Part shown: piece after piece, positions 4,283-33,934 of the stretch
Position numbering within the stretch: position 1 is the stretch's first letter
How the letters are laid out: the number at the start of each line of letters is the position of its first letter
Assembly: GCF_003334815.1 (NCBI RefSeq)
Contig: NZ_QOWO01000004.1
Reading direction: 5' to 3' (one strand)
Source: Escherichia coli
GTDB lineage: Bacteria > Pseudomonadota > Gammaproteobacteria > Enterobacterales > Enterobacteriaceae
Length of the DNA stretch: 64,000 bases
Translations under genes and position numbers: made by a program
The notes under the pieces: generated by a model
The model's database searches: none
Told to the model about the DNA's origin: nothing
What the model saw: the letters and a program-made list of their open reading frames with translations, nothing else

Positions 4283-5560
4283 TTAAATAAGATGTTGATT
4301 TTTGACTTTACTTATATTACTTAGCAACAGTATGCATAAAAGTAGTTCTCCACTTGATATTGCTACCGCTGCACCATAGCCATTATATAAACCGGCAAGT
4401 AATAAAAGAAAAATTACCGTAAAAATAGCAGAATAAATGATACTGCAACTATACATTTTGGCACAACCTGCAGCACTCAGGATTTGAATACCAAGAACAT
4501 TATTTAGAACGCCAAGACACATCCATGGAGCCAATAAGAAGGCAAAAGCCAGAGTTTCTTGTGGTAAATTTACTCTAGGATATATGATCCACCATGCAAG
4601 TATAAAAATCAAACTCACGATCAGACCTAATAGAACTAAGGGACGTCCAGTGCGGATAGCTGACGACATGCCGACATCAAATGATTCCTTAAACTTCCTA
4701 CAACTATGCGGATAAAGTGACTGCGTCAATGGCGAAAATAATGAAACTATAGCTTTAGCTATTCGCTCTACGACTGCATAAATACCTACAACAGATGGTG
4801 TATGGTATATACCAAGAATAAAAACAGCACTGTTTGTTAGCAGTGTTGAGGCAAGTGTTGCTAAAAAATAATCCCATCCTTCCTTAAGGGATACCATCAT
4901 AAATTTTATAGTAGGTAGCATAAAATTTATATATTTTTTTTGAATGATATATATATTAGCATAAACTCCACCAATAAGCACTGGAAACGCTTGGGATAAA
5001 ATAGCAGTACTAATATCACTTTCATTACGAACGAAATATAATACACAGATACATGAGATTATTCGAGATAATATATTAATGACAGCAACTATTTTTAGTT
5101 TTTCTATCCCCTGATAGAACCATAAAGGGTACATCGAATTAGAAAATGCCCATATGAAGGCACTTACAATTATCGTATAATAATTGCTATCATTAACAAA
5201 GACCCTGCATACAATATCTATAATACTAAATAGCAGAAATGTTAAAACAAATTTAACAAAATTAATTGCATAGTATATACGTGATATTTGACAAATATTA
5301 TCTCTACTTTGAGATATAGCTCGACTGGCACTGTAAGCAAATCCATAATCAATGACAACCTGGAAATACGCCATCAATACCAATGCAAATGCATATTTAC
5401 CAAAGCCATCAATGCCCAAGGTTGTTATAAGATGACCTAGCACGATAATTGGTGAAAGATACGCAACACCTTGTGTGCAAAGTAAATATCCAGCATTATA
5501 TATTACATTTTTGTATTCTTTATTTATCAACAAAGAAACCTCTTGCTTAATTTTACTCAC
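4283..5560 (-). CDS. wzx: O-antigen flippase Wzx
   Basis: 425 aa, highly hydrophobic polytopic membrane protein immediately downstream of rmlC; position and composition typical of Wzx. Confidence 0.85.
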   Translation of the reverse strand: MSKIKQEVSLLINKEYKNVIYNAGYLLCTQGVAYLSPIIVLGHLITTLGIDGFGKYAFALVLMAYFQVVIDYGFAYSASRAISQSRDNICQISRIYYAINFVKFVLTFLLFSIIDIVCRVFVNDSNYYTIIVSAFIWAFSNSMYPLWFYQGIEKLKIVAVINILSRIISCICVLYFVRNESDISTAILSQAFPVLIGGVYANIYIIQKKYINFMLPTIKFMMVSLKEGWDYFLATLASTLLTNSAVFILGIYHTPSVVGIYAVVERIAKAIVSLFSPLTQSLYPHSCRKFKESFDVGMSSAIRTGRPLVLLGLIVSLIFILAWWIIYPRVNLPQETLAFAFLLAPWMCLGVLNNVLGIQILSAAGCAKMYSCSIIYSAIFTVIFLLLLAGLYNGYGAAVAISSGELLLCILLLSNISKVKNQHLI

Positions 5561-6090
5561 CTGTAAAGAAATGGTTGCTTAGAGTCTTTCTCTGATACAA
5601 TAGGCTCATTAATTAGTGGCCAATCTATTTTTATATCTGGATCATGCCAGGCCAAACCACGATCACTGGTTGGAGCATAATAATTCGTCGTCTTATACAA
5701 AAACTCTGCCGTTTCACTCAGCACCAAAAACCCATGCGCAAATCCTTCTGGTATCCACAACTGGCGCTTATTCTCAGCAGATAAATTCACCCCAACCCAT
5801 TTGCCAAAAGTTGGTGACGATTTACGAATATCAACCGCTACGTCAAAAACTTCACCAACAACGCAGCGCACCAACTTTCCTTGTGCATAAGGTTCTAACT
5901 GATAATGCAGTCCGCGTAAAACACCTTTACAAGACTTCGAATGGTTATCCTGGACAAATTCAACTTTGCGGCCTACAGCTTCCTCAAAAACCTTCTGGTT
6001 AAAGCTCTCGAAAAAGAAACCGCGCTCGTCACCAAAAACTTTCGGTTCGAAAATTAATACGTCTGGAATCTCTGTTTTAATTACGTTCAT
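5557..6090 (-). CDS. rfbC: dTDP-4-dehydrorhamnose 3,5-epimerase
   Basis: 177 aa; MNVIKTEIPDVLIFEPKVFGDERGFF is the RmlC signature; 4-bp overlap with wzx. Confidence 0.95.
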   Translation of the reverse strand: MNVIKTEIPDVLIFEPKVFGDERGFFFESFNQKVFEEAVGRKVEFVQDNHSKSCKGVLRGLHYQLEPYAQGKLVRCVVGEVFDVAVDIRKSSPTFGKWVGVNLSAENKRQLWIPEGFAHGFLVLSETAEFLYKTTNYYAPTSDRGLAWHDPDIKIDWPLINEPIVSEKDSKQPFLYR

Positions 6091-6094
6091 TTTA

Positions 6095-6973
6095 TTAATA
6101 ACCTTTAATCATTTTTAGCAGGTACTGACCATAAGCATTTTTCTTCAACGGTTCAGCTAATATTTTCACCTGCTCAGCATTGATAAACCCTTTACGGTAA
6201 GCAATTTCTTCTGGACAGGAAACTTTCAACCCTTGACGCTCTTCAATTGTAGCAATGAAGTTGCTTGCCTCAATCAGGCTTTGATGTGTCCCCGTGTCTA
6301 ACCATGCATATCCACGTCCCATCATGGCAACAGATAAACGCCCTTGTTCCATGTAGATACGGTTAATATCGGTAATTTCCAGTTCACCGCGGGCAGAAGG
6401 CTTAAGATTTTTCGCCATTTCTACAACGTCGTTATCATAGAAATAAAGCCCAGTTACCGCATAATTACTTTTTGGCTGTAGCGGTTTTTCTTCCAGGCTA
6501 ATTGCCGTACCGTTTTTATCAAACTCAACGACACCATAGCGTTCAGGATCATTAACGTGATAGGCAAACACCGTTGCACCACTTTCTTTGTTAACAGCGG
6601 CATCCATTAACTTCGGCAGATCGTGACCGTAAAAAATATTATCACCAAGAACCAAAGCACAATCATCACCACCGATAAATTCTTCACCGATGATAAATGC
6701 TTGCGCAAGACCATCTGGACTTGGTTGCACTTTGTACTGAAGATTCAGGCCCCACTGGCTCCCGTCACCCAACAGTTGTTGAAAACGAGGAGTATCCTGT
6801 GGCGTACTTATAATTAGAATATCGCGAATACCCGCCAACATCAGTGTAGAGAGCGGATAATAGATCATCGGTTTATCATAAATAGGTAATAGCTGTTTAC
6901 TGACAGCCATAGTCACAGGATAAAGACGTGTACCAGAACCACCCGCTAAAATAATACCTTTACGCGTTTTCAT
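6095..6973 (-). CDS. rfbA: Glucose-1-phosphate thymidylyltransferase
   Basis: 292 aa; [16 protein letters not shown] nucleotidyltransferase motif; synteny rmlBDAC. Confidence 0.95.
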
Positions 6974-7030
6974 TCCATCATTCCTTTTAATTCATCTTGT
7001 TCCACCATCACGAACAAGATACAAAAACTA

Positions 7031-7930
7031 TTAAATTGCTGTAGTCGTAAATAATTCGTTGAGCATGCGTTTCACACCAACCTGCCAGTCAGGCAAAACA
7101 AGCGCAAAGTTCTGCTGAAATTTTTCTGTATTAAGGCGAGAGTTATGCGGACGACGAGCTGGTGTAGGATAGGCTGTTGTTGATACTGCGTTGAGCTTGT
7201 TGAGTGCAAGGGGAATGCCTGCTTTGCGCGCCTCTTCAAAAACCAGCGCAGCATAATCGTGCCAGGTTGTGGTACCACTGGCTACCAGATGGTACAAGCC
7301 TGCGACTTCTGGTTTATTCAGTGCCACACGAATTGCATGTGCCGTACAATCAGCCAGCAGTTCAGCACCTGTTGGCGCACCAAACTGATCATTAATAACG
7401 GCTAATTCTTCACGCTCTTTTGCCAGACGCAACATCGTTTTGGCGAAGTTATTTCCTTTACCTGCATAGACCCAGCTGGTACGGAAAATTAGGTGCTTCG
7501 CACAATGCTCTTGTAATGCTTTTTCTCCAGCTAACTTGGTTTCACCGTAAACATTTAGCGGTGCGGTTGCATCCGCCTCCTGCCATGGTATTTCACCGGT
7601 CCCCGGAAATACGTAGTCAGTTGAGTAATGAATTACCCAGGCCCCAACTTCATTAGCCGCTTTTGCAATTGATTCAACGCTGGTCGCATTGAGTAATTGT
7701 GCAAATTCGGGTTCTGACTCAGCCTTATCTACTGCGGTATGAGCCGCAGCATTAACAATAACATCAGGGCGAATTTTTTTGACGGTTTCAGCTACACCTT
7801 CAGGATTACTAAAATCACCACAATAATCAGTGGAGTGAACATCAAGAGCAATCAAATTACCCAAAGGTGCCAGAGCACGCTGTAGTTCCCAACCGACCTG
7901 CCCTGTTTTGCCGAAAAGGAGAATATTCAT
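7031..7930 (-). CDS. rfbD: dTDP-4-dehydrorhamnose reductase
   Basis: 299 aa; [21 protein letters not shown]-terminus typical of RmlD. Confidence 0.95.
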   Translation of the reverse strand: MNILLFGKTGQVGWELQRALAPLGNLIALDVHSTDYCGDFSNPEGVAETVKKIRPDVIVNAAAHTAVDKAESEPEFAQLLNATSVESIAKAANEVGAWVIHYSTDYVFPGTGEIPWQEADATAPLNVYGETKLAGEKALQEHCAKHLIFRTSWVYAGKGNNFAKTMLRLAKEREELAVINDQFGAPTGAELLADCTAHAIRVALNKPEVAGLYHLVASGTTTWHDYAALVFEEARKAGIPLALNKLNAVSTTAYPTPARRPHNSRLNTEKFQQNFALVLPDWQVGVKRMLNELFTTTAI

Positions 7931-9015
7931 TACTGGCGGCCCTCATAGTTCTGTTCAATCCACGATTGATAAGCACCACTTTTCACATTATCAACCCATT
8001 TTGTATTGGACAGGTACCATTCCACCGTTTTACGAATCCCGCTCTCAAACGTTTCCTGCGGTTTCCAGCCCAATTCGCGGCTAATCTTCTCTGCATCAAT
8101 CGCATAACGGCGATCGTGTCCCGGGCGATCGGCAACATAAGTAATTTGCTCACGGTAAGATTTCTCTTTCGGTACAATCTCATCCAACAAATCACAAATA
8201 GTGAGCACTACATCGATGTTTTTCTTTTCGTTGTGTCCACCAATGTTATAAGTTTCACCCGCTTTACCTTCGGTTACGACGATATATAACGCACGCGCAT
8301 GATCTTCAACATACAGCCAGTCACGAATTTGATCCCCTTTGCCATAAATAGGTAATGCCTTACCTTCCAGAGCATTAAGAATTACTAGTGGAATCAATTT
8401 TTCCGGAAAGTGATAAGGACCGTAGTTATTCGAACAGTTAGTCACAATGGTCGGTAAACCATAGGTACGTTTCCACGCACGGACTAAATGATCGCTGGAT
8501 GCTTTTGATGCGGAATAAGGACTACTAGGCGCGTAAGCTGTCGTCTCAGTAAAGAGGGGTAATTGTTCTTTATTATTTACTTCGTCAGGATGAGGCAGAT
8601 CGCCATAGACTTCGTCAGTAGAAATATGATGAAAACGGAAGCTATTTTTCTTGTCGCCATCAAGAGCAGACCAGTAATTGCGAGCCGCTTCCAAAAGGAC
8701 ATAAGTACCAACAATATTGGTTTCAATAAATGCCGCAGGGCCTGTAATTGAACGATCCACATGGCTTTCAGCAGCCAGGTGCATCACTGCATCCGGCTGA
8801 TGCTGAGCAAAAATCCGCGCCATTGCAGCAGCATCGCAAATATCCGCATGTTCAAAAACATAGCGTTCAGAATCAGAAACATCAGCAAGTGATTCCAGGT
8901 TTCCGGCGTACGTTAATTTATCGACATTAACAACACTATCCTGCGTATTATTTATAATGTGACGAACTACTGCAGAACCAATAAATCCTGCGCCACCAGT
9001 AACAAGTATCTTCAC
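7930..9015 (-). CDS. rfbB: dTDP-glucose 4,6-dehydratase
   Basis: 361 aa; [20 protein letters not shown]ossmann N-terminus; first gene of the rfb operon. Confidence 0.95.
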
Positions 9016-9083
9016 TTTTTTATTCCATATTACTTCAGAGCATGCTGTGAAATTAGCGGCTCTTAGTTTGATTAATAGAGGTA

Positions 9084-9125
9084 TTAATGCACGCTACCGC
9101 CCCTGGCTTTACAGCTACCAGAGCA
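9084..9125 (-). promoter_or_regulatory. JUMPstart element with ops (RfaH antitermination site) upstream of rfbB
   Basis: Forward cacgctaccgcc at 9090..9101 is the reverse complement of ops GGCGGTAGCGTG; the same 30-nt motif recurs upstream of wza at 33630. Confidence 0.8.
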
Positions 9126-9386
9126 CTGCATGCATGCCTACGATGTAGCGAGCGTTACCCACTCGCGCTTAACCCGAAAAATTCAAACGCTAATTGTCTT
9201 ACCAATTCGCCCTGGAAACAAGGAAAATCCTGGAAAACTTTGACTAAAATCCTATTGCTAACTCGTTGTTATTCTGATTGTTTATATAAAACAACGGCAG
9301 GAATATTCGCAACAAATTACTTTCGCCACGAATCTTCACTGCCGTTATAATTTTCTTATCAACCGTTACATCCGGTCAGATTTTCA

Positions 9387-10280
9387 TTATTCGCTTAACA
9401 GTTTCTCAATACCTTTACGGAACTTCGCCCCTTCTTTCAGGTTGCGTAGTCCATACTTCACAAATGCCTGCATATAGCCCATTTTTTTACCGCAGTCGTA
9501 GCTGTCACCAGTCATCAGCATTGCATCAACAGACTGTTTTTTCGCCAGTTCGGCAATGGCATCTGTCAGTTGGATACGTCCCCATGCACCTGGCTGAGTG
9601 CGTTCAAGTTCCGGCCAAATATCTGCAGAAAGCACATAGCGACCAACGGCCATGATGTCTGAGTCCAGCGTCTGCGGCTGATCCGGTTTTTCGATAAATT
9701 CAACAATGCGGCTGACTTTACCTTCACGATCCAGTGGTTCTTTGGTCTGAATAACGGAGTATTCAGAGAGGTCACCCGGCATACGTTTTGCCAGCACCTG
9801 GCTACGGCCCGTTTCATTGAAACGCGCAATCATGGCAGCAAGGTTGTAACGCAGCGGATCGGCACTGGCGTCGTCGATCACAACGTCTGGCAGCACCACG
9901 ACAAATGGGTTGTCACCAATGGCGGGTCGTGCACACAAAATGGAGTGACCTAAACCTAAAGGTTCGCCCTGACGTACGTTCATAATGGTCACGCCCGGCG
10001 GGCAGATGGACTGAACTTCCGCCAGTAGTTGACGCTTCACGCGCAGTTCAAGAAGAGATTCTAATTCATAAGAGGTGTCGAAGTGGTTTTCGACCGCGTT
10101 CTTGGACGCGTGAGTTACCAGGAGGATTTCTTTGATACCTGCAGCCACAATCTCGTCAACAATGTACTGAATCATTGGCTTGTCGACGATCGGTAGCATC
10201 TCTTTGGGAATCGCCTTAGTGGCAGGCAACATATGCATCCCAAGACCCGCTACAGGAATAACTGCTTTTAAATTCGTCAT
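9387..10280 (-). CDS. galF: UTP-glucose-1-phosphate uridylyltransferase subunit GalF
   Basis: ORF track gives 301 aa from 10292; conserved start [22 protein letters not shown] at 10280 gives 297 aa; GalU/GalF family. Confidence 0.95.
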
Positions 10281-10454
10281 TATTTCATCCACCTGTAAAA
10301 TGGTTGCTGAATTATAGCTTGTTCGATTTTTTTCGCCAGCATCAATTACCCTGAATTGATTACTGAATTACTTGTGATGTTACGCCGCTTCGTTGTGGAT
10401 TGCAGTAGCATTGTTCCTAAGTATGGCTCCATTTTTCCAGGAATGGTCGCAAAT

Positions 10455-11849
10455 CTACTCCCTCCGTTCCGGCAATCTAAAGTTAATCTTTTCCACATTA
10501 ACAATATGGTGATTAATCCTGTCGATATCGACGGAGCTTTGCCCTCTTTCATTCACCGCATGAACATTTGCAAGAGACAGCAGTGTTTCTTTTTTCGCCA
10601 TAAAGACGCCGCGAACGTCTTTGCGCATGTCGAAGTTCATGCTCAATGCGGGACCAACTGAGGATTCCTGCATCACTTTGATATTACGCATAAAAAGATG
10701 TTGCGGTTTATTGTGAAGCTCCAGCGAGGCACGCTTCATCTCAATGTTAGTCAGTGCCACAAAGGAGGCAGCATTCCCGGCGGAGATTTGGATGCCGCGC
10801 AATTTATAAGCAAGATGGGTGTTATCCAGTTGAATATTATTCACTCGGAAATTTTGCGGTATCGAGAGATATTTGCCTTTAATTACCCCATAGCCGATTA
10901 ACATCCCGGCGCTATTAATCATTTCAATATTATCAATCACGAAATTGTCACAACCATAAATAGCGACTGTGGCGTTATCTATGCCTGCTTTCTTACTGAA
11001 ATCCGGCGTGATATTGCGGGCTTTGATATTACGGATAACAAAATGTTTGCCATTTTCAACATGGATCAACTGCCGACAATCCGATCCCGTGATATTTGCC
11101 ACGACAAAGTTTTTCACTGCCTGGTCTTCCGGGTAGTTATTATCATAAGTACTCCCCGCAAGGCCTATGCCAATGCCCCAGTTGATTTTGCCATTAGTAC
11201 AGTTGATGCGCTCGATGACATGGTCGGAGATCAAAATATCACGGTCGTTAATCGCCACGTTCCATTCAATGGCGTCGCCCTGTAAATCACTAAATTTACA
11301 GTTGGTGATGTTGGCACCGATAATCTGGTTATGAAATCCCTGGCGTAAGATGGCGTAATTAGCGTGGCTGACAGTGAGGTTATCGATGGTCAGGTTGCGC
11401 ATGACCCGTTTGTTTTTGCCGCCGATATAAATCTGCGTTACCGGACCAAAGCCGCTCATCGCCAGCCCTTTGATGGTGCAGTCAGAACCACGCACATCCA
11501 GGGTGATGTTATGCATACTGCCGCCCTCCTCCCCTGTCACCTGGCTGCCGTCCTGTAAGACAAATCGCCCTCTGCCGTTGCCGCGCAGGCTTCCAAGGAT
11601 GTGTAACGTTTTACCTGCAGGAATGAAGATGCCGGTGTTGATATTGTCACAAACGAATCCGGCAGGCACGACGACCGTATGCCCTTCGCTGAAGGCTTGT
11701 TTAAATGAGGCGATCCAGTCGTGTGGGTTGTAGTCGTTAATGTTAACGCTTTGTCTGGCGCGAAGTGCGCGAGCGAAAGGGGTATGGAGGAAGGCAAGCG
11801 CGGAGCTTGCCGTCAGGAAGGTGCGTCGGGAGAGTTTTTTAAATGGCAT
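10455..11849 (-). CDS. wcaM: Colanic acid biosynthesis protein WcaM
   Basis: 464 aa with twin-arginine-like signal ([15 protein letters not shown]); last gene of the colanic-acid cluster by synteny. Confidence 0.85.
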
Positions 11850-11859
11850 GCGTTCTCCT

Positions 11860-13080
11860 CTATAAAGCCTGCAACAAGCTGGCGAGTTCCCGATTAATCA
11901 CCTGCTGGTTAAAATCGTGTTCGACTTTTTCGCGAGCACGTTTGACAACCGGAGCCAGTTCGTCGGTGTCCAGTTGGCTAAACGCCGCCAGTCGTTGCGC
12001 CAGTGCGCGAGCATCGTTCTCAGGCACCAGCCAGCCGGATTTATCGGCCTCCACCAGTTCCGGTATTCCGCTATGCAGAGTAGAAACCACCGGAATGCCG
12101 ACCGCCATCGCTTCCATCAGCGCCACCGGAATGCCTTCCATATCGCCATCCGCGCCCGTTACCGATGGCAACAGGAAGACATCCGCGTCGTCGAGCATCG
12201 CTTTCACTTCGTGGCTCGGTTTAAAGCCCGGCATCTCTACCACATCTTCCAGTTGATATTGTTCGATGAGGGTACGCAGGCGTCGTTCCCACGGGCCAAT
12301 GCCGAGGATGCGATAGCGAAATGCCACGCCCTGCTCTTTCAGCTGACGGCAGGCTTCAATCGCCACATGCAGGCCTTTTTTCTCGGTTAAGCGTGCGACA
12401 GATATGATTTCCAGCGGCGTTGCGGGCGCTTTCACCGGACGCGGGCTAAAGCGCGTCATGTCCACGCCCATGCGCGATACGGCGATTTTTTCCCTCGGGC
12501 AGCCCATTTTTTGCAGCCTTCCGGCCCACAGATCGCTTATCGGTAGCATCAGGTCGCCACGGCGAAACAGTTGTTGATATTCGGGGGTGTAGTGGTTGAG
12601 CACTTCCCGACTGGAGATATCAATGCCGTGGAAAATGGTGGCAATTTTGCCGCGAATGACACCCAGTTCCCGTAGTTTTGCTGCGGTTACCCCCGCAGGG
12701 CCAAAATGAGCGATGAACACATCGGCATGAAACGGTGTTGCGACCTGGCCGCAAATGGCAGACAAAATCAGGTTCCGCGACTCGGCACCATAGCGTTTGA
12801 GGTTGAGCGCCTGCCAAGTATTTTTACGATGAATGCCGCGTAACGTCTGGCTGGCGCGGTGGCGCAGCTTCGCCACTTTGCCCGTAGGTTCGTCCTGTAA
12901 CCAATGGGTTCTGGCGGCAAGGTTATATTTCGTCCATGCCGCGTGGGTGTTTTGTGTGTCGCCTTTTTGCAGCGCGACAATCTCTACCTCAAATCCCATA
13001 TCAATAAACGCGGTAATTTGGTTGAGAACGAAGGTTTCCGACGACAGCGGAAATTTCAGTAAAAAGAAGCCGACCTTCAT
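11860..13080 (-). CDS. wcaL: Colanic acid glycosyltransferase WcaL
   Basis: 406 aa GT4-like protein; synteny. Confidence 0.9.
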
Positions 13081-14357
13081 TTCGCCTCCCCGATGCGCTC
13101 AAGCACAGACTGCACCATCTGCATTCCCGTCTGACGCTCACGACTGACGGCTTCACTAAGTCGCGCGTTCAGCGCCGGAAGCTGGCCCAAGGTATCCGCA
13201 ACCATCACTTGCAGGCTGCCGTCTAATAAATGACGGATATCAATCGCCATATCTGGTAGCCCCAACTGCTGCATAATTCCGGCGGATTTATGCTCATAGT
13301 TGATGGCAATTGCCGGAGTGGCAAAGTTCATTGAGATAATGGCGGAGTGCAGGCGCGTACCGACGGTGAGTTCACAGGCACCGAGAATTTTGCCCATTTC
13401 CAGATCGTTGAGTTCATCCATCACTACGTGGTAACGGGCAGGCTCGCTGATGTGCTGGCGCAGATTGAGCGCCACCATGCGGTCGTCTTTGTTATAGCTG
13501 TCGATACCCGTACAGGTGGAGAGCGCAATCACCTGATACCCTTCATCGAGAATGCGATTGACCACCCCGGCAAAGGCTTTTTCATACGCTTGTTGAGTGG
13601 TGCCGAGACGTTTGTCGAACGGTGCCAGTTCGCGCAGGGTAATGGCCACCGTTTTCTGTTGTGCGGCAACGTCCAGCCAGTGTTGAACGGCATAGCTGGC
13701 GGTGAAATCTTCGGTGTGGTGATCGACCAGCCACGCGGTATCGACGCCATGTTCCACTTTTGCGGTGGTGATATTGCTGTGTTTCATCAGATCAAGGCTG
13801 ACCGATTCGCGCAGGATCAGCGCGTCGCAGTGACCAAAAACGTAGTTCGCCAGTTGGTTAAATTGCTCATCCTGGAAGGGGCCAACACTGTGACCAATCA
13901 TAAACAGCGGCTTTTTCGCCATAAACGTGCAAAGCGCATGTTCAAACTGCGGCACGCCGTAGAGATCGACAAAAAACGATCCGCCGACCTGGATAATGGC
14001 GTCGTAACCTGACAGCAGGCGCACGAAGTCGGTGAATCCCTGGGCGATGGCGATATTACGCAGCTTGCCAGTGTCGGTGACGCGTGAGAGCAATACCTGA
14101 TGCTGGTAGCGGCGACGGAGGACTTTTTTAACGCGCCCGACAACGCCCGCCGCGCTGTTGTGTTGTTTCATTTGCAGGAACAGCGGATCGCCCATTACCG
14201 GGCGGTTGAGCAGCCAGGAAGAACTGACCGGATAGCGGCTCATGACGTCCACTTCGGCATGTGGATTGAGGATGTTGATGGCATCAAGTAAGCCGCGCAA
14301 GATGGCGCTGTCGCCGCGATTGCCGCAAGTGTGGTTGCCCAGAATAAGTAATTTCAT
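13077..14357 (-). CDS. wcaK: Colanic acid pyruvyl transferase WcaK
   Basis: 426 aa; synteny between wzxC and wcaL. Confidence 0.9.
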   Translation of the reverse strand: MKLLILGNHTCGNRGDSAILRGLLDAINILNPHAEVDVMSRYPVSSSWLLNRPVMGDPLFLQMKQHNSAAGVVGRVKKVLRRRYQHQVLLSRVTDTGKLRNIAIAQGFTDFVRLLSGYDAIIQVGGSFFVDLYGVPQFEHALCTFMAKKPLFMIGHSVGPFQDEQFNQLANYVFGHCDALILRESVSLDLMKHSNITTAKVEHGVDTAWLVDHHTEDFTASYAVQHWLDVAAQQKTVAITLRELAPFDKRLGTTQQAYEKAFAGVVNRILDEGYQVIALSTCTGIDSYNKDDRMVALNLRQHISEPARYHVVMDELNDLEMGKILGACELTVGTRLHSAIISMNFATPAIAINYEHKSAGIMQQLGLPDMAIDIRHLLDGSLQVMVADTLGQLPALNARLSEAVSRERQTGMQMVQSVLERIGEAK

Positions 14358-14417
14358 TTTTTCCTCATAAATTTGATGCCAGGTGAGGCTGTGTTTGTTG
14401 TGTTCATTGCCGTTTTT

Positions 14418-14612
14418 TGCCTGATGCGACGCTGGCGCGTCTTATCAGGCCTACAAGACCCGAGCACAGAACCGTAGACCGGATAAGGCGTTCACGCCGC
14501 ATCCGGCATTCAGTGCCTGATGCGACGCTGACGCGTCTTATCAGGCCTACAGGTCCCGAGCACAGAACCGTAGGATGGATAAGGCGTTTTACGCCGCATC
14601 CGGCAACCGTTG
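14418..14612. repeat. REP/BIME cluster (tandem palindromic units) between wcaK and wzxC
   Basis: Two copies of an approx 100-bp unit each containing gcctgatgcgacgctg(g/a)cgcgtcttatcaggcctac and ccggataaggcgtt(c/t)acgccgcatccgg. Confidence 0.85.
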
Positions 14613-14632
14613 TCGGAACCGAAAACAGCAAC

Positions 14633-16111
14633 TCACCCCGCCCGTAAAAGCATTTTCATTTTTTCGCTGCGACAAAACTGACGCTTCACTTCCACCACCA
14701 GCGGATGGCGCGACAGCACAATCATCACCACAAACGCCAGAACGCCCGCGGCTATTTGCACCGCCAGCAGCATCCCCAGCGCCAGTTGCCCTTTCAGCAC
14801 AATGCCCAGCGCATAACTGACCACCAGCGTCGGCAGCGAGAGATAAAACGGCAGCCATAAACTCAGGATGTACTGGCGATAACTGGAACCAAGAACCGGT
14901 TTAATCATCACGAAGTAACTCAGAATGGTGTTGATAATCTGTACCAACAGGAAGCCGAGCGTGACGCCAATTGCGCCCGCCATCTGCCCACCTATAACAA
15001 TCGCCGGAATAAACAGAAAGGTTTTGAATACGTTGAATTTAAAGCTGATATCGACCCGCGCTTTCGCCATCAGCAGCGAACCAATCGGGTTACCTACGGA
15101 ACGCAGCAGACCCACCACACACAGCAATTGCAGCACCGGAATAATGCTGTTCCACTTCTCACCAAAGACCAGCGGTACAAAGTTATTCGACACCACCATC
15201 AGCCCCAGCAGCGCCGGAAAGTTGATAATCCCAACTACCGACAGCAGCTTGTAGAAGTTAACGCGCAGCTTTTCGGTGTCGTCCTGAATTTTGGCAAACG
15301 CCGGAAACAACACGCGGGTGATGATCGGGTTCAGCTTCATCGGCGGCACAACGGCCACGTTGTAAGCCAGGTTGTAGCCCCCTGCCACGCCCGCGCCGAG
15401 AATACGCGCCAGCACCAGCGTTGAAAGGTTGGTATTGAGATAGTTGATGATGCTGTCCGCCGTCAGCCAGGCACCAAAGCGTAAGTTCGGTGCCACCGAC
15501 GCCAGCGAGAAATGCAGACCGGGGCGATAAATTTTGCGGCCAAAGTAGCCAAACAGCAGCGTTCTCACCGCACTATTGACCAGATAACCGAGGATCGCGG
15601 TCATCGCCAGCGGCCAGAAATGGGCGCTAACCACCGTAAAAGTGAAGCCCGCCAGTACCGCGCTGGTTTCGATCATGCCGATTTTGTTGAACTCCAGCTC
15701 CTTTTGCATCAACGCGCGGAACTGCTGCCCCTGGGGGATCACCACAAACGCCAGCGACAATGTTTTAATCAACGGTGCCAGGTCCGGGTTATTCAGCACG
15801 TCGCCGATGAGATCACTCAACAAAAACACCGCCAGACACACCACAAGCCCCAGCCCGACGTTCAGCCAGTACAGCGTGGTGAGTTCAAGGTGGCTGATTT
15901 CTTTTCGCTGAATAATCGAGTTAGCGATACCGAAGTCAGAAAGCGTATCTGCCAGCGCGATGATCACCAGCGACACGGTAAGCAAACCGAACTGGTGGTT
16001 GTCGATAATCCGCGCCAGCACGGTCATCTGCACCAGCCCGAGGCCGATGATGATCACCGTGGCAACCGCCGACCACTTCGCGCCGCTGATGGTTTTTTCA
16101 CGTAAGCTCAT
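14633..16111 (-). CDS. wzxC: Colanic acid flippase WzxC
   Basis: 492 aa polytopic membrane protein; synteny. Confidence 0.9.
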   Translation of the reverse strand: MSLREKTISGAKWSAVATVIIIGLGLVQMTVLARIIDNHQFGLLTVSLVIIALADTLSDFGIANSIIQRKEISHLELTTLYWLNVGLGLVVCLAVFLLSDLIGDVLNNPDLAPLIKTLSLAFVVIPQGQQFRALMQKELEFNKIGMIETSAVLAGFTFTVVSAHFWPLAMTAILGYLVNSAVRTLLFGYFGRKIYRPGLHFSLASVAPNLRFGAWLTADSIINYLNTNLSTLVLARILGAGVAGGYNLAYNVAVVPPMKLNPIITRVLFPAFAKIQDDTEKLRVNFYKLLSVVGIINFPALLGLMVVSNNFVPLVFGEKWNSIIPVLQLLCVVGLLRSVGNPIGSLLMAKARVDISFKFNVFKTFLFIPAIVIGGQMAGAIGVTLGFLLVQIINTILSYFVMIKPVLGSSYRQYILSLWLPFYLSLPTLVVSYALGIVLKGQLALGMLLAVQIAAGVLAFVVMIVLSRHPLVVEVKRQFCRSEKMKMLLRAG

Positions 16112-16112
16112 A

Positions 16113-17507
16113 TCAATATGCCGCTTTGTTAACGAAACCTTTGAACACCGTCAGGAAAACGATTTTGATATCGAACCAGACGCTCCATTCGCGGATGTAC
16201 TCAAGGTCGAACTCGACGCGTTTTTCCATTTTCTCCAGCGTGTCGGTTTCGCCGCGCCAGCCGTTAATCTGCGCCCAGCCGGTAATGCCCGGTTTCACTT
16301 TATGGCGCAGCATGTAGCCTTCAATGAGCTGGCGATACTGTTCGTTATGCGCTACTGCGTGCGGACGTGGACCGACAATCGACATCCCCCCGGTCAGCAC
16401 ATTGATAAACTGCGGTAATTCGTCCAGCGAGGTGCGGCGCAGAAAGTTCCCCACTTTAGTGACGCGCGGATCGTTCTGCGTCGCCTGGGTCACCACTTTG
16501 TCGTTCTCCATCACTTTCATGGAACGGAACTTCCACACTTTGATCGGCTTGCCATCCATGCCGTAGCGAGTCTGGCGGAAAATAACCGGCCCTGGTGAAC
16601 TGAGTTTTACCGCCAGCGCAATACAGCACAGCACCGGGGAGATCAGCAGCAAGATCAGCGTCGCCAGCACAATGTCTTCCGCACGTTTTAGCAGGCGGTT
16701 AACCCCGGAAAGCGGCGTGTCATACAGCGGCACCACCGGAACGCCGTTCATCTCTTCGAGACGTGAATGGAGAATATTGAAGGTAAAGACATCGGGGATC
16801 AGCAGCACCGAACAGGTGGTGTCCGCCAGTTGATGGACCAGTTTTTTCACTCGCGCGCCGTCGCACATTTGCATCGCGATATAGACGTTATGAATCTTGC
16901 CCGCTTTAGCATCCTCGACCAGCTGTTGCAGATTGCCCGCCCAGTCGTTAGAAACGCCGCCCGGTTTCGGGTCGTGGTAAACGCCCACCACTTCAAACCC
17001 TAACCACGGCTGATTACGGAAGCTCTCCATCAGCATTTGTCCGGCGGCTAAATCCCCCGCCACCGCGACCATGCGCTTGTTATAGCCATGATTACGCAGC
17101 CAGCCCGCCCCAATGCGAATACATGAACGGCAAACCACCAGTCCGATACTGGTCAGCCCATACCACGCCAGCCAGATTTTCAGTTGCGTGTCGAAATCAT
17201 TGTTGAACGCCACCAGTCCGGCGCTGAAAATCACGCTTAAGGTCCAGTTTTGTAGCAACAGGGCAAATTCTGTCGCTGCCCGAACACCGCGCCATGAGCG
17301 ATAAAAATCGGTGATGCCGCCCAGCATCTGGAACACCACCAGCGTAATCAACGCCACCAACAGGTGCATGTAGAGGAATGACAGTCCGCTCACTTCGCAA
17401 ACCAGCCATAGTCCGGCAAACATGATGGTGATATCTGAAAAGCGTTGCACCATAGAGATTAACGATGCATTGGTTTTCGCTCGCTCGCGCTTTTTTAGAT
17501 TTGTCAT
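16113..17507 (-). CDS. wcaJ: UDP-glucose:undecaprenyl-phosphate glucose-1-phosphate transferase WcaJ
   Basis: 464 aa; C-terminal sugar transferase domain (PRPHAVAHNEQY...); synteny. Confidence 0.9.
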   Translation of the reverse strand: MTNLKKRERAKTNASLISMVQRFSDITIMFAGLWLVCEVSGLSFLYMHLLVALITLVVFQMLGGITDFYRSWRGVRAATEFALLLQNWTLSVIFSAGLVAFNNDFDTQLKIWLAWYGLTSIGLVVCRSCIRIGAGWLRNHGYNKRMVAVAGDLAAGQMLMESFRNQPWLGFEVVGVYHDPKPGGVSNDWAGNLQQLVEDAKAGKIHNVYIAMQMCDGARVKKLVHQLADTTCSVLLIPDVFTFNILHSRLEEMNGVPVVPLYDTPLSGVNRLLKRAEDIVLATLILLLISPVLCCIALAVKLSSPGPVIFRQTRYGMDGKPIKVWKFRSMKVMENDKVVTQATQNDPRVTKVGNFLRRTSLDELPQFINVLTGGMSIVGPRPHAVAHNEQYRQLIEGYMLRHKVKPGITGWAQINGWRGETDTLEKMEKRVEFDLEYIREWSVWFDIKIVFLTVFKGFVNKAAY

Positions 17508-17529
17508 CGTTGTTCCTGTTCTATTGTCG

Positions 17530-17632
17530 CCTCGCCCCTCACCCCGGCCCTCTCCCCAAAGGGGCGAGGGGGAGAAGAAAGTTCCGTGCTCACTTCTCTC
17601 CGCAGGCAGTAGAGCGTCAGGGTGAGGGGGAA
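17530..17632. repeat. GC-rich palindromic intergenic element between wcaJ and cpsG
   Basis: ctcgcccctcaccc ... ggggcgaggggg inverted repeat, plus a further ggtgaggggg copy; resembles E. coli intergenic GC-rich repeats, family not assigned. Confidence 0.35.
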
Positions 17633-17642
17633 AGTAATGACA

Positions 17643-19013
17643 TTACTCGTTCAGCAACGTCAGCAGAGTTCGCGTTCGCGCTTCCATCAGCGGTACATCA
17701 CCGCGCGATTCCACATTCAACCGCACCACCGGTTCGGTGTTGGAGGAGCGCAGGTTAAAGCGCCAGTCGGCAAAGGTCATGCTGATACCATCGGTGCGAT
17801 CCACCGCCAGCGCCTCACGGCTAAAGTGCTGTTCCACGCGGTTAATCGCCTCAACGGGTTGCGCCAGTTTGCTGTTGATCTCACCGCTTGCCGGAAACGC
17901 CGCCATCCGGTCGCGCACCAGTTCGCCCAGCGTTTTTCCTTTCAGGCACACCAGTTCGGCGACCAGCAGCCATGGGATCATGCCGCTGTCGCAGTAAGCG
18001 AAATCACGGAAGTAATGGTGGGCGCTCATTTCGCCACCGTAGATGGCGTCTTCCTTGCGCATACGTTCTTTAATAAAGGCGTGTCCGGTTTTCGACATTA
18101 CCGGGGTGCCGCCTGCGGCAGTCACCACATCAACGGTATTCCAGGAGAGACGAGGATCGTGGATGATCTTCGCGCCGGGATTTTTTTCGAGGAACGCTTC
18201 TGCCAGCAGGCCGACAATGTAGTAGCCCTCAATAAACTGCCCTTTTTCGTCAAACAGGAAGCAGCGGTCAAAATCGCCATCAAAGGCAATGCCCATATCC
18301 GCGCCGTGTTTGATGACCGCATTGCGGGTGTCGTCGCGGCATTCCGGCAGTAGTGGGTTAGGAATACCGTTGGGGAAATTGCCGTCCGGCGTGTTGTGCA
18401 CTTTGATTAATTCCACGGGTGCGCCGAGGGCTTTAAAGCGGGCTTCAATGGCGTCCACCACCGGACCCGCTGCGCCGTTCCCGGAGTTGATCACCAGCTT
18501 GAGCGGCGTGAGGTTTTTGACGTTGATATAACCGAACAGGTGATCAACGTAAGCGTCACGCAGGTTGATTTGCTGATAGCGACCGCGTTTGGTTTCATCG
18601 ACGGGAGGAAAGTCGTTGGCTTCAGCCAGACGCTGGACGTCGCGCAGTCCGGTATCTCCGCTGATCGGGCGAGCCCCCTCGCGAACCAGCTTCATGCCGT
18701 TATAATCCATCGGATTATGGCTGGCGGTAACTTCAATGCCGCCATCCACGCCGAGATGGAACGTGGCGAAATAGATCTCTTCGGTGCCGGACATACCAAT
18801 ATCCAGCACGTCAACGCCCGCATCCTGTAAACCTTTTGCCAGCGCCAGTTTTAAGGTTTCGCTGGTGAGACGGACATCACCGCCTAACACAATGGTTTTC
18901 GGTTTGAGAAATTCGCCATAAGCGCGACCAATGCGCCAGGCAATATCTTCATTCAATTCTTCGCCTAATTTCCCGCGAATATCATAGGCTTTAAAGCAGG
19001 TTAATTTTTTCAT
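17643..19013 (-). CDS. cpsG: Phosphomannomutase
   Basis: ORF track 472 aa; conserved start [15 protein letters not shown] at 19013 gives 456 aa; TASHNP active-site motif present. Confidence 0.95.
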
Positions 19014-19102
19014 ATCGTTACCCTTTTTCAGGCAATAGTTGGCCCTGACCGAAGCGGCCAATTTTATTTTTGTCGTTATTTACACCGCGGTTTCGCATTC
19101 AT

Positions 19103-19204
<102 letters not shown>

Positions 19205-19205
19205 T

Positions 19206-20642
19206 TTACACTCGTCCGTAGCGATCCGCGAAGCGCACCACATCATCCTCTTCGAGATAAGAGCCGGAGCGCACTTCAATTAAATCGAGCGGAATTTTCC
19301 CCGGGTTTTCCAGGCAGTGCGTCGCCCCCAGCGGAATATAAATGGACTCGTTTTCACCAAGCAGTTTGATATCACCGTCAATGGTGACTTTTGCCGTTCC
19401 CGCAACCACCACCCAGTGTTCCGCGCGGTGATGGTGCATCTGTACCGACAAGCCCTCGCCCGGTTTCACGGTGATGCGTTTCACCTGGTAGCGGTCGCCC
19501 GCGTCGATAGAGTCATATTTGCCCCACGGACGATACACTTCGCGATGCACCCGATGCTCATGGCGACCATCGGCTTTGATCTGCTCGACCACTTTTTTCA
19601 CATCCTGCACCGCGTTACGGTCGGCAATCAGCACCGCATCTTTGGTCTGCACCACTACCAGATCTTTCACCCCGACGGTGGTGACCAGGCCAGATTCGGC
19701 GTACACATAGCTGTTTTCAGTTTTGTGATTAATCACATCTCCGTGGCAAACGTTGCCCTCGGCGGTGTGGGCGCTAATTTCCCATAATGAGGACCAGGAG
19801 CCGACATCGCTCCAGCCCGCATCCATCGGTACCACAACGGCATCTGCCGTACGTTCCATGACCGCGTAATCCACCGACTCTTCCGGGCAGGCGAGAAACG
19901 CTTCTTCATCCACACGAATAAAATCAAGATCCGGATCGACGGAGCTCATCGCTTTTTCACAGGCATCGAGAATATCCGGGCGATATTTTTTCAGTTCTTC
20001 GAGATAGCGTCCGGCGCGGAACAGGAACATGCCGCTGTTCCAGTAATATTCGCCGCTTGCCACATAGGCCTGAGCGGTTTCAAGATTCGGTTTTTCGACA
20101 AACTGCGCCACTTCAAAGGCCACCGTATCCTGCTCACCCGCAGACACTTCACCGCGACGAATATAGCCATAACCGGTTTCTGGTAGATCCGGCACAATGC
20201 CAAAGGTCACCAGCTTGCCCGCTTCGGCATATGGCATGGCATTACGCACGGCGGCACGGAACGCGTCTTCATCGGCAATCACATGATCCGCCGCCAATAC
20301 CAGCATTAACGGGTCGCTCTCCGGGCTATGACGTTTTGCCGCCAGCGCCGCCAACGCAATGGCAGGTGCAGTGTTACGCCCTGCAGGTTCGAGAATAATG
20401 TTCTCGGTGAGTTTGTTCAGTTGACGCAGCTGTTCCGCGACAATAAAGCGGTGCTGCTCATTGCAAATCACCACCGGGCTTTCGCACTCCACGCCGTTTA
20501 GGCGGCAGATGGTGGTTTGCAGCATGGTGAGATCGCCTTTCAGGCATAAAAACTGCTTGGGATAAAGTACGCGGGAAAGCGGCCATAAGCGGCTACCGGA
20601 GCCACCTGCCATCACAACTGGATAGAGTTTCGACTGCGCCAT
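19206..20642 (-). CDS. cpsB: Mannose-1-phosphate guanylyltransferase
   Basis: 478 aa; [24 protein letters not shown] nucleotidyltransferase N-terminus and C-terminal cupin region. Confidence 0.95.
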
Positions 20643-27001: not shown

Positions 27002-28193
27002 ACTCCTCCAGCATCTGTTGTCCACTGTAGGCGGCGCGGCTGCGTTGGCTGAACTCAGCCAGCGTGGTACCAAATATCGCCTGCGCGATTTCCGGTTTGC
27101 TTAACTGGACCAGTTGCAGCACGTCTTCTTCGCTGACAGTTTTACCTCCGGATTTTTGCAGCACTTCCCGCGCCGCATCGCTATGGGTGGCGATCACCGG
27201 CACACCAATCGATAGCGCCTCACACAAAATCAGCGGGTAGTTATCGACACGAGAACTGAACACCAGCGCATCCATCTGATTGAGCGCGCTCATCAACTTG
27301 CGCTTGTCAGTTTCAAAGCCGTGATTAACCACGTTGCCAGCGGTGAACGGCGAGAACTTACCAAAGGTATGCAGTTCGATTTTGTCGCCCAGCGCCATCA
27401 TCTCACGCACCAGTTGCTGGTTAGTTTTGCCGTCGTAACGCAGGTCATGCGCCACCACCGCGATTTTCGGCTTGCCCTGGGTTTCGCGCACCGGAGGCAG
27501 ATCCGCCAGAATCGCTTCGGTTGCCATATCAATGCCATTATTGATAATCCGGCAACGCCCTGGACCGTACAGGCTATTGAAAGCATCAGCCACATGCTGG
27601 CTGGGGGAAATAAACTGACAGCCCAGCGCCAGCATCTCACGAAATAACTGGCGTTTGCCCGCCACCAGCTGGTGCGCGCGATCAATCTTCACCGGCGGAT
27701 AGTTATTTAAGGTCGGGCATTTCTGGCAACCCGTTTTCCAGCCTTCGCAACCGTCGGTAAAGGCGCAGCGCCCGGTTACACTCCAGTGATCGTGCAGCGT
27801 CCAGACCACAGTGACGTCCGGTTTATGGTTTTTCACTTTTTCGCAAAAGCGCACCACGCTCTTAAGATTTAGCCAGTAGCTGTGCAGCACATGAAAATGC
27901 AGGACCACCGGACCCGGTGTGCGAGTAATGGTGCGATATAACTCATTGAAATTGCCAAACAGATCGCGATTAAACAGACGAAACAGTGCAATGTTCGCCA
28001 TCGCGGTCATCCGCGGCGTATGTTTGATTACCTGCGGATAGTTTTGATGGCTGACGCTCTCTTTGCCGCCTTTGCCGTAACCGTAGACAAAATGTGACGC
28101 CAGCCCCTGTTGCAGCGCACGCTGATGGAGATCTAACGCCACACCTGCTGCCCCGCCTTCCGCCAGTCGCACATTAAATTGCAAAATATTCAT
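26976..28193 (-). CDS. wcaC: Colanic acid glycosyltransferase WcaC
   Basis: 405 aa GT4-like; synteny. Confidence 0.9.
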   Translation of the reverse strand: MNILQFNVRLAEGGAAGVALDLHQRALQQGLASHFVYGYGKGGKESVSHQNYPQVIKHTPRMTAMANIALFRLFNRDLFGNFNELYRTITRTPGPVVLHFHVLHSYWLNLKSVVRFCEKVKNHKPDVTVVWTLHDHWSVTGRCAFTDGCEGWKTGCQKCPTLNNYPPVKIDRAHQLVAGKRQLFREMLALGCQFISPSQHVADAFNSLYGPGRCRIINNGIDMATEAILADLPPVRETQGKPKIAVVAHDLRYDGKTNQQLVREMMALGDKIELHTFGKFSPFTAGNVVNHGFETDKRKLMSALNQMDALVFSSRVDNYPLILCEALSIGVPVIATHSDAAREVLQKSGGKTVSEEDVLQLVQLSKPEIAQAIFGTTLAEFSQRSRAAYSGQQMLEEYVNFYQNL

Positions 28194-33626: not shown

Positions 33627-33662
33627 AGACACGCTACCGCCCCTGGCTTTTTAGCTACCAAT
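33627..33662 (-). promoter_or_regulatory. JUMPstart/ops element in the wza leader
   Basis: cacgctaccgcccctggcttt..agctacca, near-identical to the element at 9090; ops = reverse complement of 33630..33641. Confidence 0.8.
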
Positions 33663-33934
33663 ACACTGATTTAGCTTAATTTTTCAAACCCTCTCTGCAT
33701 ACAATCGTTGATGAGAAAGGGTTATTGCGGAAATTAACTTCCGAATATAAGGTGACATTATGGTAATTGAATATTGGCTCTCCAATAATGCAGGAGGAAG
33801 TGTTACAGCTAACGGAATAGCAGGCAAGGTAACAATTCGGCAATTGGCTATTTTTAAGAATTATATTAAGTGTCATTCAATATGGTTTTTAGGAGTTTCT
33901 TTAGGTTGACAATATTTAATATTGCGTCTCCACA

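Follow-up and report, generated by a model that had tools for sequence, protein, structure and literature searches.

The window analysed here is a stretch of 64,000 nucleotides of Escherichia coli DNA that contains the genes of the colanic-acid (wca) operon. Four of them, all located on the minus strand, surround the feature under study: cpsB (19206-20642), cpsG (17643-19013), encoding a phosphomannomutase, wcaJ (16113-17507), encoding an undecaprenyl-phosphate glucose phosphotransferase, and wzxC (14633-16111). The genes were named after RefSeq loci whose sequence is identical or nearly so. The upstream cistron cpsG and the downstream cistron wcaJ are separated by an intercistronic spacer (17508-17642, minus strand) bounded by the TAA of cpsG (17645-17643) and the ATG of wcaJ (17507-17505). 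It is 135 nt long, exactly the length given in an earlier note on this DNA, and corresponds to the longer of two alleles found in E. coli. A 135-bp spacer of identical sequence separates the annotated wcaJ and cpsG genes of E. coli E2865 and of strain O26:H11 11368, in which it occupies positions 2875079-2875213. A Shine-Dalgarno-like AGGA is located 6 nt upstream of the wcaJ ATG (17514-17517, minus strand), within a ACAGGAACAACG block. The operon that contains the spacer is headed by a JUMPstart element (33630-33668), and the wca operon is under RfaH/JUMPstart anti-termination. Within the 64-kb window, both other sizeable spacers nearby (cpsB-cpsG and wzxC-wcaK) are filled by REP/BIME. Two antisense open reading frames (17422-17625 and 17465-17758) overlap the cpsG-wcaJ spacer and were taken as mechanical.

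The earlier note had pointed to GC-rich inverted repeats in this spacer, and these repeats are real. The strings that it quoted, ctcgcccctcaccc (17531-17544), ggggcgaggggg (17561-17572) and ggtgaggggg (17621-17630), are all found on the plus strand, and a repeat search recovered inverted repeats above the level expected by chance. These include a perfect inverted repeat of 10 nt (17530-17539 with 17560-17569), a second one of 11 nt with 91% complementarity and an outer one of 19 nt with 84% complementarity (17535-17553 with 17611-17629). Furthermore, the spacer contains the only two copies of the motif GGGGYGAGGGG in the 64-kb window, for 0.06 copies expected from shuffles.

Three options had been left open for these repeats: (i) an intra-operon attenuator, (ii) a processing site or (iii) a member of a GC-rich intergenic repeat family resembling BoxC. 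The third is correct, as indicated by an exact match to the family consensus, by the dispersion of the sequence in E. coli genomes and by the presence of the same locus in a published catalogue. It is practically certain that the spacer carries an inverted pair of units of BoxC, a GC-rich repeat dispersed between the genes of E. coli and other proteobacteria. BoxC/PIT elements are reportedly also covered in descriptions from the early 1990s and by Hoyne and Maher in 2000. The element formerly called BoxC, and later PIT (potential intrastrand triplex), is the triplex motif TMECO of Holder et al. (2015, PMC4666352). The core consensus given by these authors is 5'-CCCTCNCCC N3-6 GGGNGAGGG N3 GGGNGAGGG[G/T/C/-]-3'. 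Used as a regular expression, it matches positions 17536-17570 of the minus strand with 0 mismatches, and it detects no second TMECO in the 64-kb window, even when 4 mismatches are allowed. The intact TMECO, which is the BoxC core, reads CCCTCGCCCC TTT GGGGAGAGGG CCG GGGTGAGGGG (17535-17570, minus strand) and belongs to type B mm, the mm class being defined in Holder et al. (2015, PMC4666352). This 36-mer is, letter for letter, TMECO no. 3 of K-12, also of type B mm (Table 1 of PMC4666352). Moreover, the orthologous copy of O26:H11 11368 has the same sequence and is TMECO no. 391 (2875141-2875106, Table S8 of PMC4666352). Therefore, the locus is already part of the published catalogue, in which the genes flanking TMECO no. 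391 are not named. As a feature, the element is thus a BoxC copy that is already known and catalogued.

The full unit extends beyond the core. BLAST matches to dispersed copies cover positions 27-82 of the spacer used as query, i.e. 17534-17589 (minus strand) or exactly 56 nt, with 85-91% identity. The unit consists of the TMECO preceded by a 5' extension of ~20 nt (GAGCACGGAACTTTCTTCTCC). Judged against nine K-12 TMECO loci, this extension (GCAC..G..TTTC[TC]) is common to the type-B copies of K-12, and 48 columns are identical between the unit and no. 3. The whole unit is intergenic, inside the cpsG-wcaJ spacer. Among the 5426 complete E. coli genomes that were used as BLAST target, the 56-bp core was found at 28083 places in 4611 genomes (E <= 1e-3), with 1-15 places per genome and a median of 6. 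The genome-wide copy number, which had been proposed as a check of the repeat-family option, thus shows that the motif is not unique. For comparison, the published TMECO counts are 29 in O26:H11 11368 and 23 in K-12 (Holder et al. 2015, PMC4666352). BoxC features are absent from the repeat annotation of NC_000913.3 in the copy examined. Annotators can label the element as BoxC/PIT/TMECO instead of leaving it as an unexplained structure: its exact sequence, 56-bp unit, typical 5' extension, intergenic location and multicopy state are those of this family, with nothing different in kind.

Of the two units, the one next to wcaJ is the intact 56-bp BoxC, with its TMECO core of type B mm, and the one next to cpsG is decayed and lies in the opposite orientation. 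This decayed TMECO (17593-17630, plus strand) reads CCCCCTCACCC TGA CGCTCTACTGCC TGCG GAGAGAAG on the mRNA. It includes the ggtgaggggg string that the earlier note had described as an additional copy; the string is indeed present at the position given above, but it is a remnant of the inverted partner unit and not a mere extra copy. Compared with a reverse-complemented type A unit, the partner is identical at 27 of the 36 consensus positions and carries a 2-nt insertion. The loop of the partner reads TGA in the mRNA and TCA on the strand of the unit itself, vs TAA/TTA in type A. Furthermore, it aligns column by column with the intact partners found in the same spacer in Enterobacter, Kluyvera, Lelliottia and Buttiauxella. 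According to Holder et al. (2015, PMC4666352), TMECO pairs always associate a type A with a type B. The spacer shows the same association of the two types in inverted orientation, type A being characterised by a TTA loop and type B by a CCG loop, and the same succession of a reverse-complemented type A, a linker and a type B is found at K-12 loci 17/18 and 3. Taken together, the two units form a BoxC pair of the standard kind. Among the 5426 E. coli genomes, the decayed half (17590-17642) was found only at the cpsG-wcaJ locus. Therefore, the pair was not recently copied from elsewhere in E. coli.

Two alleles of the spacer coexist in E. coli. The long one is found in ~510 of the 5426 genomes, including O26 and O145 strains and a mouse isolate, and a 54-bp allele is found in ~4130 of them, including K-12 and O157:H7. 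The 54-bp allele carries a simple hairpin, CCCTTACCCC ACTGC GGGTAAGGGG, which lies where the long allele has its outer stem. This short hairpin was also considered as a dispersed repeat of its own, which was rejected since it is single-copy in the 4130 genomes. The difference between the long allele and the short allele of K-12 is confined to positions 17521-17638, and the flanks are uniformly ~2% divergent. A simple insertion with target-site duplication was rejected because the alignment with K-12 shows a replacement (118 bp vs 37 bp) without duplication. The 118-bp and 37-bp segments have only the outer arms in common. Horizontal acquisition on a divergent tract was likewise rejected, given the uniform divergence of the flanks from K-12. 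At other paired loci, the polymorphism between a pair and a simple hairpin has been described as the 'palindrome effect' (Holder et al. 2015, PMC4666352), and the spacer locus, which is polymorphic in the same way, resembles BoxC/PIT/TMECO elements in this respect also.

The element could also act at the level of the DNA. The G-rich strand might form an intrastrand purine-motif triplex, or the pair might be extruded as a cruciform, during replication or transcription, and the spacer would then be a hotspot of local instability or recombination next to the O-antigen locus. Such an explanation appears improbable to us, although several observations are in its favour. Oligonucleotides of type B mm TMECOs form stable triplexes in vitro, with a Tm of ~70 C, as established by CD, NMR and melting, and TMECO loci are more variable than control loci among 56 E. 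coli genomes (PMC4666352). The cpsG-wcaJ spacer itself is polymorphic in E. coli and highly variable among genera, and its G-rich strand is the non-template strand of the operon. However, the duplex gave no triplex signal in vitro, and DMS footprinting in vivo revealed no protection (PMC4666352). Moreover, the ~2% divergence of the flanks shows no peak around the spacer; the uniform flanks therefore give no sign of a cluster of recombination breakpoints or of extended instability. Finally, a DNA-level explanation accounts for the variability of the spacer but not for the conserved position and structure of its occupant, which are described below.

As RNA, the spacer has a predicted folding energy of -60.3 kcal/mol, with z = -3.2 vs dinucleotide shuffles. 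Folded as DNA, it has a z of ~ -2.5 on either strand, and a lone BoxC unit folds no better than shuffles (z ~ -0.3 to -0.5), so that only the pair stands out. In the predicted mRNA fold, an outer stem of 12 bp, formed by the outermost C and G blocks, encloses two inner hairpins. The 5' arm of this stem in the mRNA (CCCCUCACCCUG, 17618-17629, minus strand) pairs with a 3' arm (CGGGGUGAGGGG, 17535-17546, minus strand) that is the third G block of the intact unit, in both the minimum free energy and the centroid structures. The inner hairpin of the intact unit (CCCUCGCCCC UUU GGGGAGAGGG, 17548-17570, minus strand) contains one G.A mismatch. The first GC-rich stem begins 13 nt past the cpsG TAA and the last stem ends 27 nt before the wcaJ ATG, the AGGA of wcaJ being outside every predicted stem of the repeat. 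In a consensus computed with RNAalifold from 11 long alleles, an outer stem of 11 bp and the two inner hairpins are retained. Only 1 of its 27 pairs is changed on both sides, and long alleles show almost no covariation because the sequence of the BoxC family is itself conserved. In Rfam searches of positions 16000-19500 (cmscan, E <= 10), the sole overlap with the spacer was a human lncRNA model (15.7 bits, E = 3.1), considered as noise. At the gathering thresholds of Rfam 15, applied to the whole window, no family was found at the spacer.

Such a very stable RNA structure (-60 kcal/mol) between two cistrons could evoke an intra-operon attenuator or terminator, which would lower the transcription of wcaJ and of the genes downstream. 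Stem-loop attenuators have moreover been described in related capsule clusters. Nevertheless, this option of the earlier note is not supported by the analysis, and we consider it extremely improbable. The stem of an intrinsic terminator is followed by a run of U within 0-2 nt. No hairpin of the spacer is followed by a U-tract, the sequence past the last stem being CGAGGCGACAAUAGAACAGG / CGAGGCGACAATAG, and a scan found no terminator-like site inside 17508-17642. The nearest such site is weak, with a stem of 3 GC pairs over the cpsG stop codon (17662-17638), and the operon is, in addition, subject to JUMPstart/RfaH anti-termination. No promoter-like site (sigma-70, -35/-10 with 16-18 nt spacing) was detected in 17200-17950 on either strand. 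Earlier tests, as far as they are related in PMC4666352, found PIT elements to be without promoter or terminator activity and without effect on RNA polymerase. The spacer resembles the Rho-independent terminators and attenuators of capsule operons in having a GC-rich stem-loop between functional blocks of a JUMPstart/RfaH operon, but differs from them in its lack of a U-tract or terminator-like site and, according to the account of PIT elements given in that paper, in being termination-negative. This is a caution against calling GC-rich intercistronic palindromes of polysaccharide operons attenuators.

Purine-motif triplexes cannot form in RNA, as stated in the introduction of Holder et al. 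(2015, PMC4666352). Therefore, the alternatives at the RNA level are a hairpin or a G-quadruplex. A regular expression identified a run of four G-tracts (GGGGAGAGGGCCGGGGTGAGGGG, 17557-17535, minus strand and thus mRNA sense) that is a formal, canonical G-quadruplex motif (G3+N1-7 x4) located 27 nt before the wcaJ ATG. An RNA G-quadruplex formed there, upstream of the ribosome-binding site of wcaJ, might modulate translation. This appears very unlikely: C-rich complementary blocks are directly adjacent to the G-tracts and the hairpin fold is very stable. Furthermore, the short alleles and many other species do not have four G-tracts but keep the hairpin. For the DNA oligonucleotide, a G-quadruplex was considered and was excluded by NMR (PMC4666352).

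The position of the structure is conserved well beyond E. coli. In a scan of one genome per species, 80 wcaJ loci were retrieved and the cpsG-wcaJ spacer could be delimited in 73 of them, with lengths of 46-357 nt. Nearly all of the Enterobacteriaceae examined have either a simple GC-rich hairpin or a BoxC pair in this slot. A TMECO with at most 3 mismatches is found in 27 of the 73 spacers, 18 having a pair on both strands and 16 an exact match. Another 33 spacers do not exceed 70 nt and all consist of simple GC-rich hairpins with the C-rich arm first; by subtraction, the remaining 13 carry other structures. Compared with shuffles, 61 of the 73 spacers (84%) fold at z < -2, with a median z of -3.1. 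Whatever the length of the spacer, the structure begins at a median of 10 nt past the stop codon (within 15 nt in 60 of 73). Its end precedes the ATG by a median of 21 nt (interquartile range 18-25) and falls immediately before the ACAGGAACAACG ribosome-binding block, which is conserved in the 73 species. In 51 spacers vs 20, the sense RNA folds more stably than the antisense RNA, the difference being small (median 1.65 kcal/mol; Wilcoxon p = 3e-4, ignoring phylogeny).

The short hairpins of Escherichia, Citrobacter and Salmonella also retain their complementarity, with 97.6% of cells paired. Three of their pairs are changed on both sides (C-G/U-A, U-A/C-G and G-C/A-U) and slid-register controls come nowhere near this result, which is based on 13 sequences and perhaps 3-4 independent events. 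Furthermore, the occupant of the slot tracks the genome-wide abundance of BoxC. Citrobacter and Salmonella have short hairpins in the slot and Enterobacter often has pairs. Among the genomes listed with TMECOs in Table S1 of PMC4666352, none is from Citrobacter or Salmonella, and those of Enterobacter have 12-143 each.

This relation to BoxC abundance is in line with the main rival explanation, according to which the BoxC pair would be functionless, i.e. a neutral or selfish element tolerated at a safe site. The hairpins of other species would then be leftovers of BoxC pairs after palindrome-mediated internal deletions, and their complementarity would be kept by slippage or template switching in quasi-palindromes and not by selection. 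We regard this explanation as possible but doubtful. Several features of the locus agree with it. In E. coli, the spacer is polymorphic, with ~510 long vs ~4130 short alleles, both evidently viable. One unit of the pair is decayed and some alleles, for instance that of E69, are further deleted. The state of the slot also varies inside Enterobacter, Lelliottia and Buttiauxella. In addition, Holder et al. (2015, PMC4666352) document other loci at which a pair has collapsed to a hairpin and, in the account given by the same paper, earlier experiments revealed no function of PIT elements. However, a hairpin persists in 84% of the 73 species despite flanking spacer sequence that has freely diverged, both-sided changes preserve the pairing in short hairpins, and the structure, whatever its size, stays at fixed distances from the stop codon and the ATG. 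Moreover, the deletion bias of bacteria would be expected to purge a useless insert of 20-120 nt over such a time.

Taken as a whole, the observations are explained best, with a probability that we would place near the middle of the scale, by a BoxC pair that acts as an intercistronic RNA structure in the manner of REP elements. The RNA-level role, taken separately, is proposed more tentatively: by analogy with REP, the pair may be an mRNA structure that serves as a decay barrier or a translational insulator and not as an attenuator. The BoxC pair would be transcribed within the RfaH/JUMPstart-controlled wca operon, and the mRNA would fold into a very stable branched hairpin made of the 12-bp outer stem and the two inner hairpins. 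As it has no U-tract, this structure is proposed not to terminate transcription and would act like REP/BIME elements, as an intercistronic RNA structure. It might protect the upstream cpsB-cpsG segment against decay by 3'->5' exonucleases. It might also impede the ribosome that terminates at cpsG and insulate the initiation of wcaJ from the translation of cpsG, because it starts ~10-13 nt past the cpsG stop codon and ends ~21-27 nt before the wcaJ ATG. In both cases, the structure would determine how abundant the sugar-nucleotide enzymes are relative to the initiating transferase, which is membrane-bound. On this view, a single structural slot would be filled interchangeably by the short K-12 hairpin or by the BoxC pair.

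Published data on related elements bear on this proposal. According to Liang et al. (2015), as cited in PMC12306157, REPs reduce the translation of the upstream gene only if they are located less than 16 nt from its stop codon. TMECO no. 19 of K-12 is found in the middle of an operon, 19 nt past pstA (Holder et al. 2015, PMC4666352). In our analysis of Table S2, the BoxC units of K-12 show no preference of orientation or distance relative to genes, in agreement with the authors of PMC4666352, and this argues against one general RNA function of BoxC. A search of the literature for a cpsG-wcaJ stem-loop returned nothing relevant.

REP/BIME and the BoxC pair have several properties in common: both are dispersed, GC-rich, palindromic intergenic repeats, often intercistronic, that give stable RNA hairpins devoid of U-tracts. 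Both the barrier to 3' exonucleases and the effect close to the stop codon (within 15 nt) that are proposed here are borrowed from REP. However, BoxC is a distinct sequence family that does not have the REP consensus of the GCCGGATG/CGGATAAGGCG type, and its role at the RNA level is a proposed one. In the window, naRNA4, an Rfam model built on REP325, matches the true REPs at 14477-14547 (a BIME, 73.7 bits) and at 19072-19227, and not the spacer. Furthermore, we know of no RAYT transposase that accompanies BoxC.

A broader reading of the same data is that the stretch from the cpsG stop codon to the ribosome-binding site of wcaJ might be a conserved slot for post-transcriptional control of the colanic-acid operon throughout the Enterobacteriaceae, in which simple hairpins, fused BoxC units and BoxC pairs would be functionally equivalent, much as REP/BIME and BoxC pairs replace each other in the wzxC-wcaK slot. 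We consider it rather unlikely. If it held, BoxC would be an RNA module comparable to REP and not merely a DNA curiosity prone to instability, and BoxC-rich genomes would recruit it, through gene conversion or template switching, to sites where a hairpin already exists. A family that has been without assigned function for three decades would also gain a concrete and testable role at a naturally variant locus.

Compared with the BoxC literature available to us, the points that go further are the cpsG-wcaJ gene context, the decay of the partner unit and the slot occupied by either a hairpin or a pair in ~70 species of Enterobacteriaceae. The new point is a modest one: the hairpin slot is conserved, and BoxC pairs, simple hairpins or REPs are alternatives for filling it. 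E. coli offers two natural alleles of it, one with the BoxC pair and one with the minimal hairpin, in genomes that are otherwise nearly identical. Together with the conservation of the slot and the alternation of REP and BoxC, these alleles constitute a natural experiment on whether BoxC influences mRNA decay or translation at the RNA level. The alternation itself is seen in the wzxC-wcaK spacer, which holds BoxC pairs in 12 loci of other genera and a REP/BIME array in this window; since it can hold either, BoxC and REP fill the same kind of niche.

The 135-bp cpsG-wcaJ spacer (17508-17642), which carries a BoxC pair, is not the only repeat-bearing spacer of the colanic-acid operon. The wzxC-wcaK spacer (14358-14632) contains a tandem REP/BIME array that matches naRNA4, the Rfam model built on REP325, at 14477-14547 (73.7 bits). 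In 12 loci from other genera (L017, L020, L021, L027, L051, L058, L067-L069, L072, L074 and L079), the orthologous spacer carries BoxC/TMECO units in place of REP/BIME, mostly paired and located at about 5355-5541 in locus coordinates. Therefore, the wzxC-wcaK slot alternates between REP and BoxC. Furthermore, the cpsB-cpsG spacer (19014-19205) shows REP-like naRNA4 matches on both strands (19072-19227), albeit below threshold, and is about 88 bp longer in the window than in K-12 MG1655. Hence, this is a second repeat-associated length polymorphism of the operon.

The cpsG-wcaJ slot itself also exists in variant states. For instance, the long allele, the one with the BoxC pair, is present in E. 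coli E69 (2374-2500 in its locus), but there its intact unit has lost its 3'-terminal part to a deletion (GGGGTGAGG|CGAC). In some Enterobacter species (spacers L017, L025 and L028), the slot is occupied by a 'fused' single long hairpin in which the C- and G-rich blocks follow the order C3-C2-loop-G2-G3, one central hairpin being common to both TMECO orientations. Within E. coli, the long allele is common to the window and to O26:H11 strain 11368. Identity with this strain is 97.8% over the wca segment 14557-26430 and only 94.8% over the rfb/galF/wcaM-K segment (5677-14429), so that the window does not derive from 11368 despite the common allele. The top 375-bp match, with 100% identity, is from the mouse isolate S1 (NZ_CP010226.1).

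Two records of the locus sample bear unexpected names. The one titled Chryseobacterium sp. 18061 and the one titled uncultured Raoultella sp. both display a typical Enterobacteriaceae wca locus, with WcaJ 81% and 88% identical, respectively, and the spacer of the latter is Citrobacter-like. Both records are probably contaminated or mislabelled.

The start codon of cpsG (19013) is directly preceded by an algC RNA motif (Rfam RF02929; 19018-19067, minus strand; 76.6 bits for a gathering score of 33.8), a candidate cis-regulatory RNA. Therefore, cpsG is bracketed by this candidate on its 5' side and by the BoxC structure on its 3' side. A weak terminator-like hairpin (17638-17662, minus strand; 10 pairs including three G-C, then TTACTTTCCC) also spans the cpsG stop codon. 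Since the terminator scan returned two such sites versus 0.8 in shuffled sequences, this one is probably a chance call.

Two ops-containing JUMPstart elements are found on the minus strand (33630-33668 and 9090-9128). Judging from their positions, the wca operon would begin with one of them, and the O-antigen cluster that follows galF with the other. If so, the cpsG-wcaJ spacer would sit inside an RfaH-type anti-terminated transcript. Elsewhere in the window, a SIB antitoxin RNA (49600-49748, plus strand, 142 bits) and the CyaR sRNA (63867-63952, plus strand, 101 bits) are usual E. coli features, unrelated to the BoxC finding.
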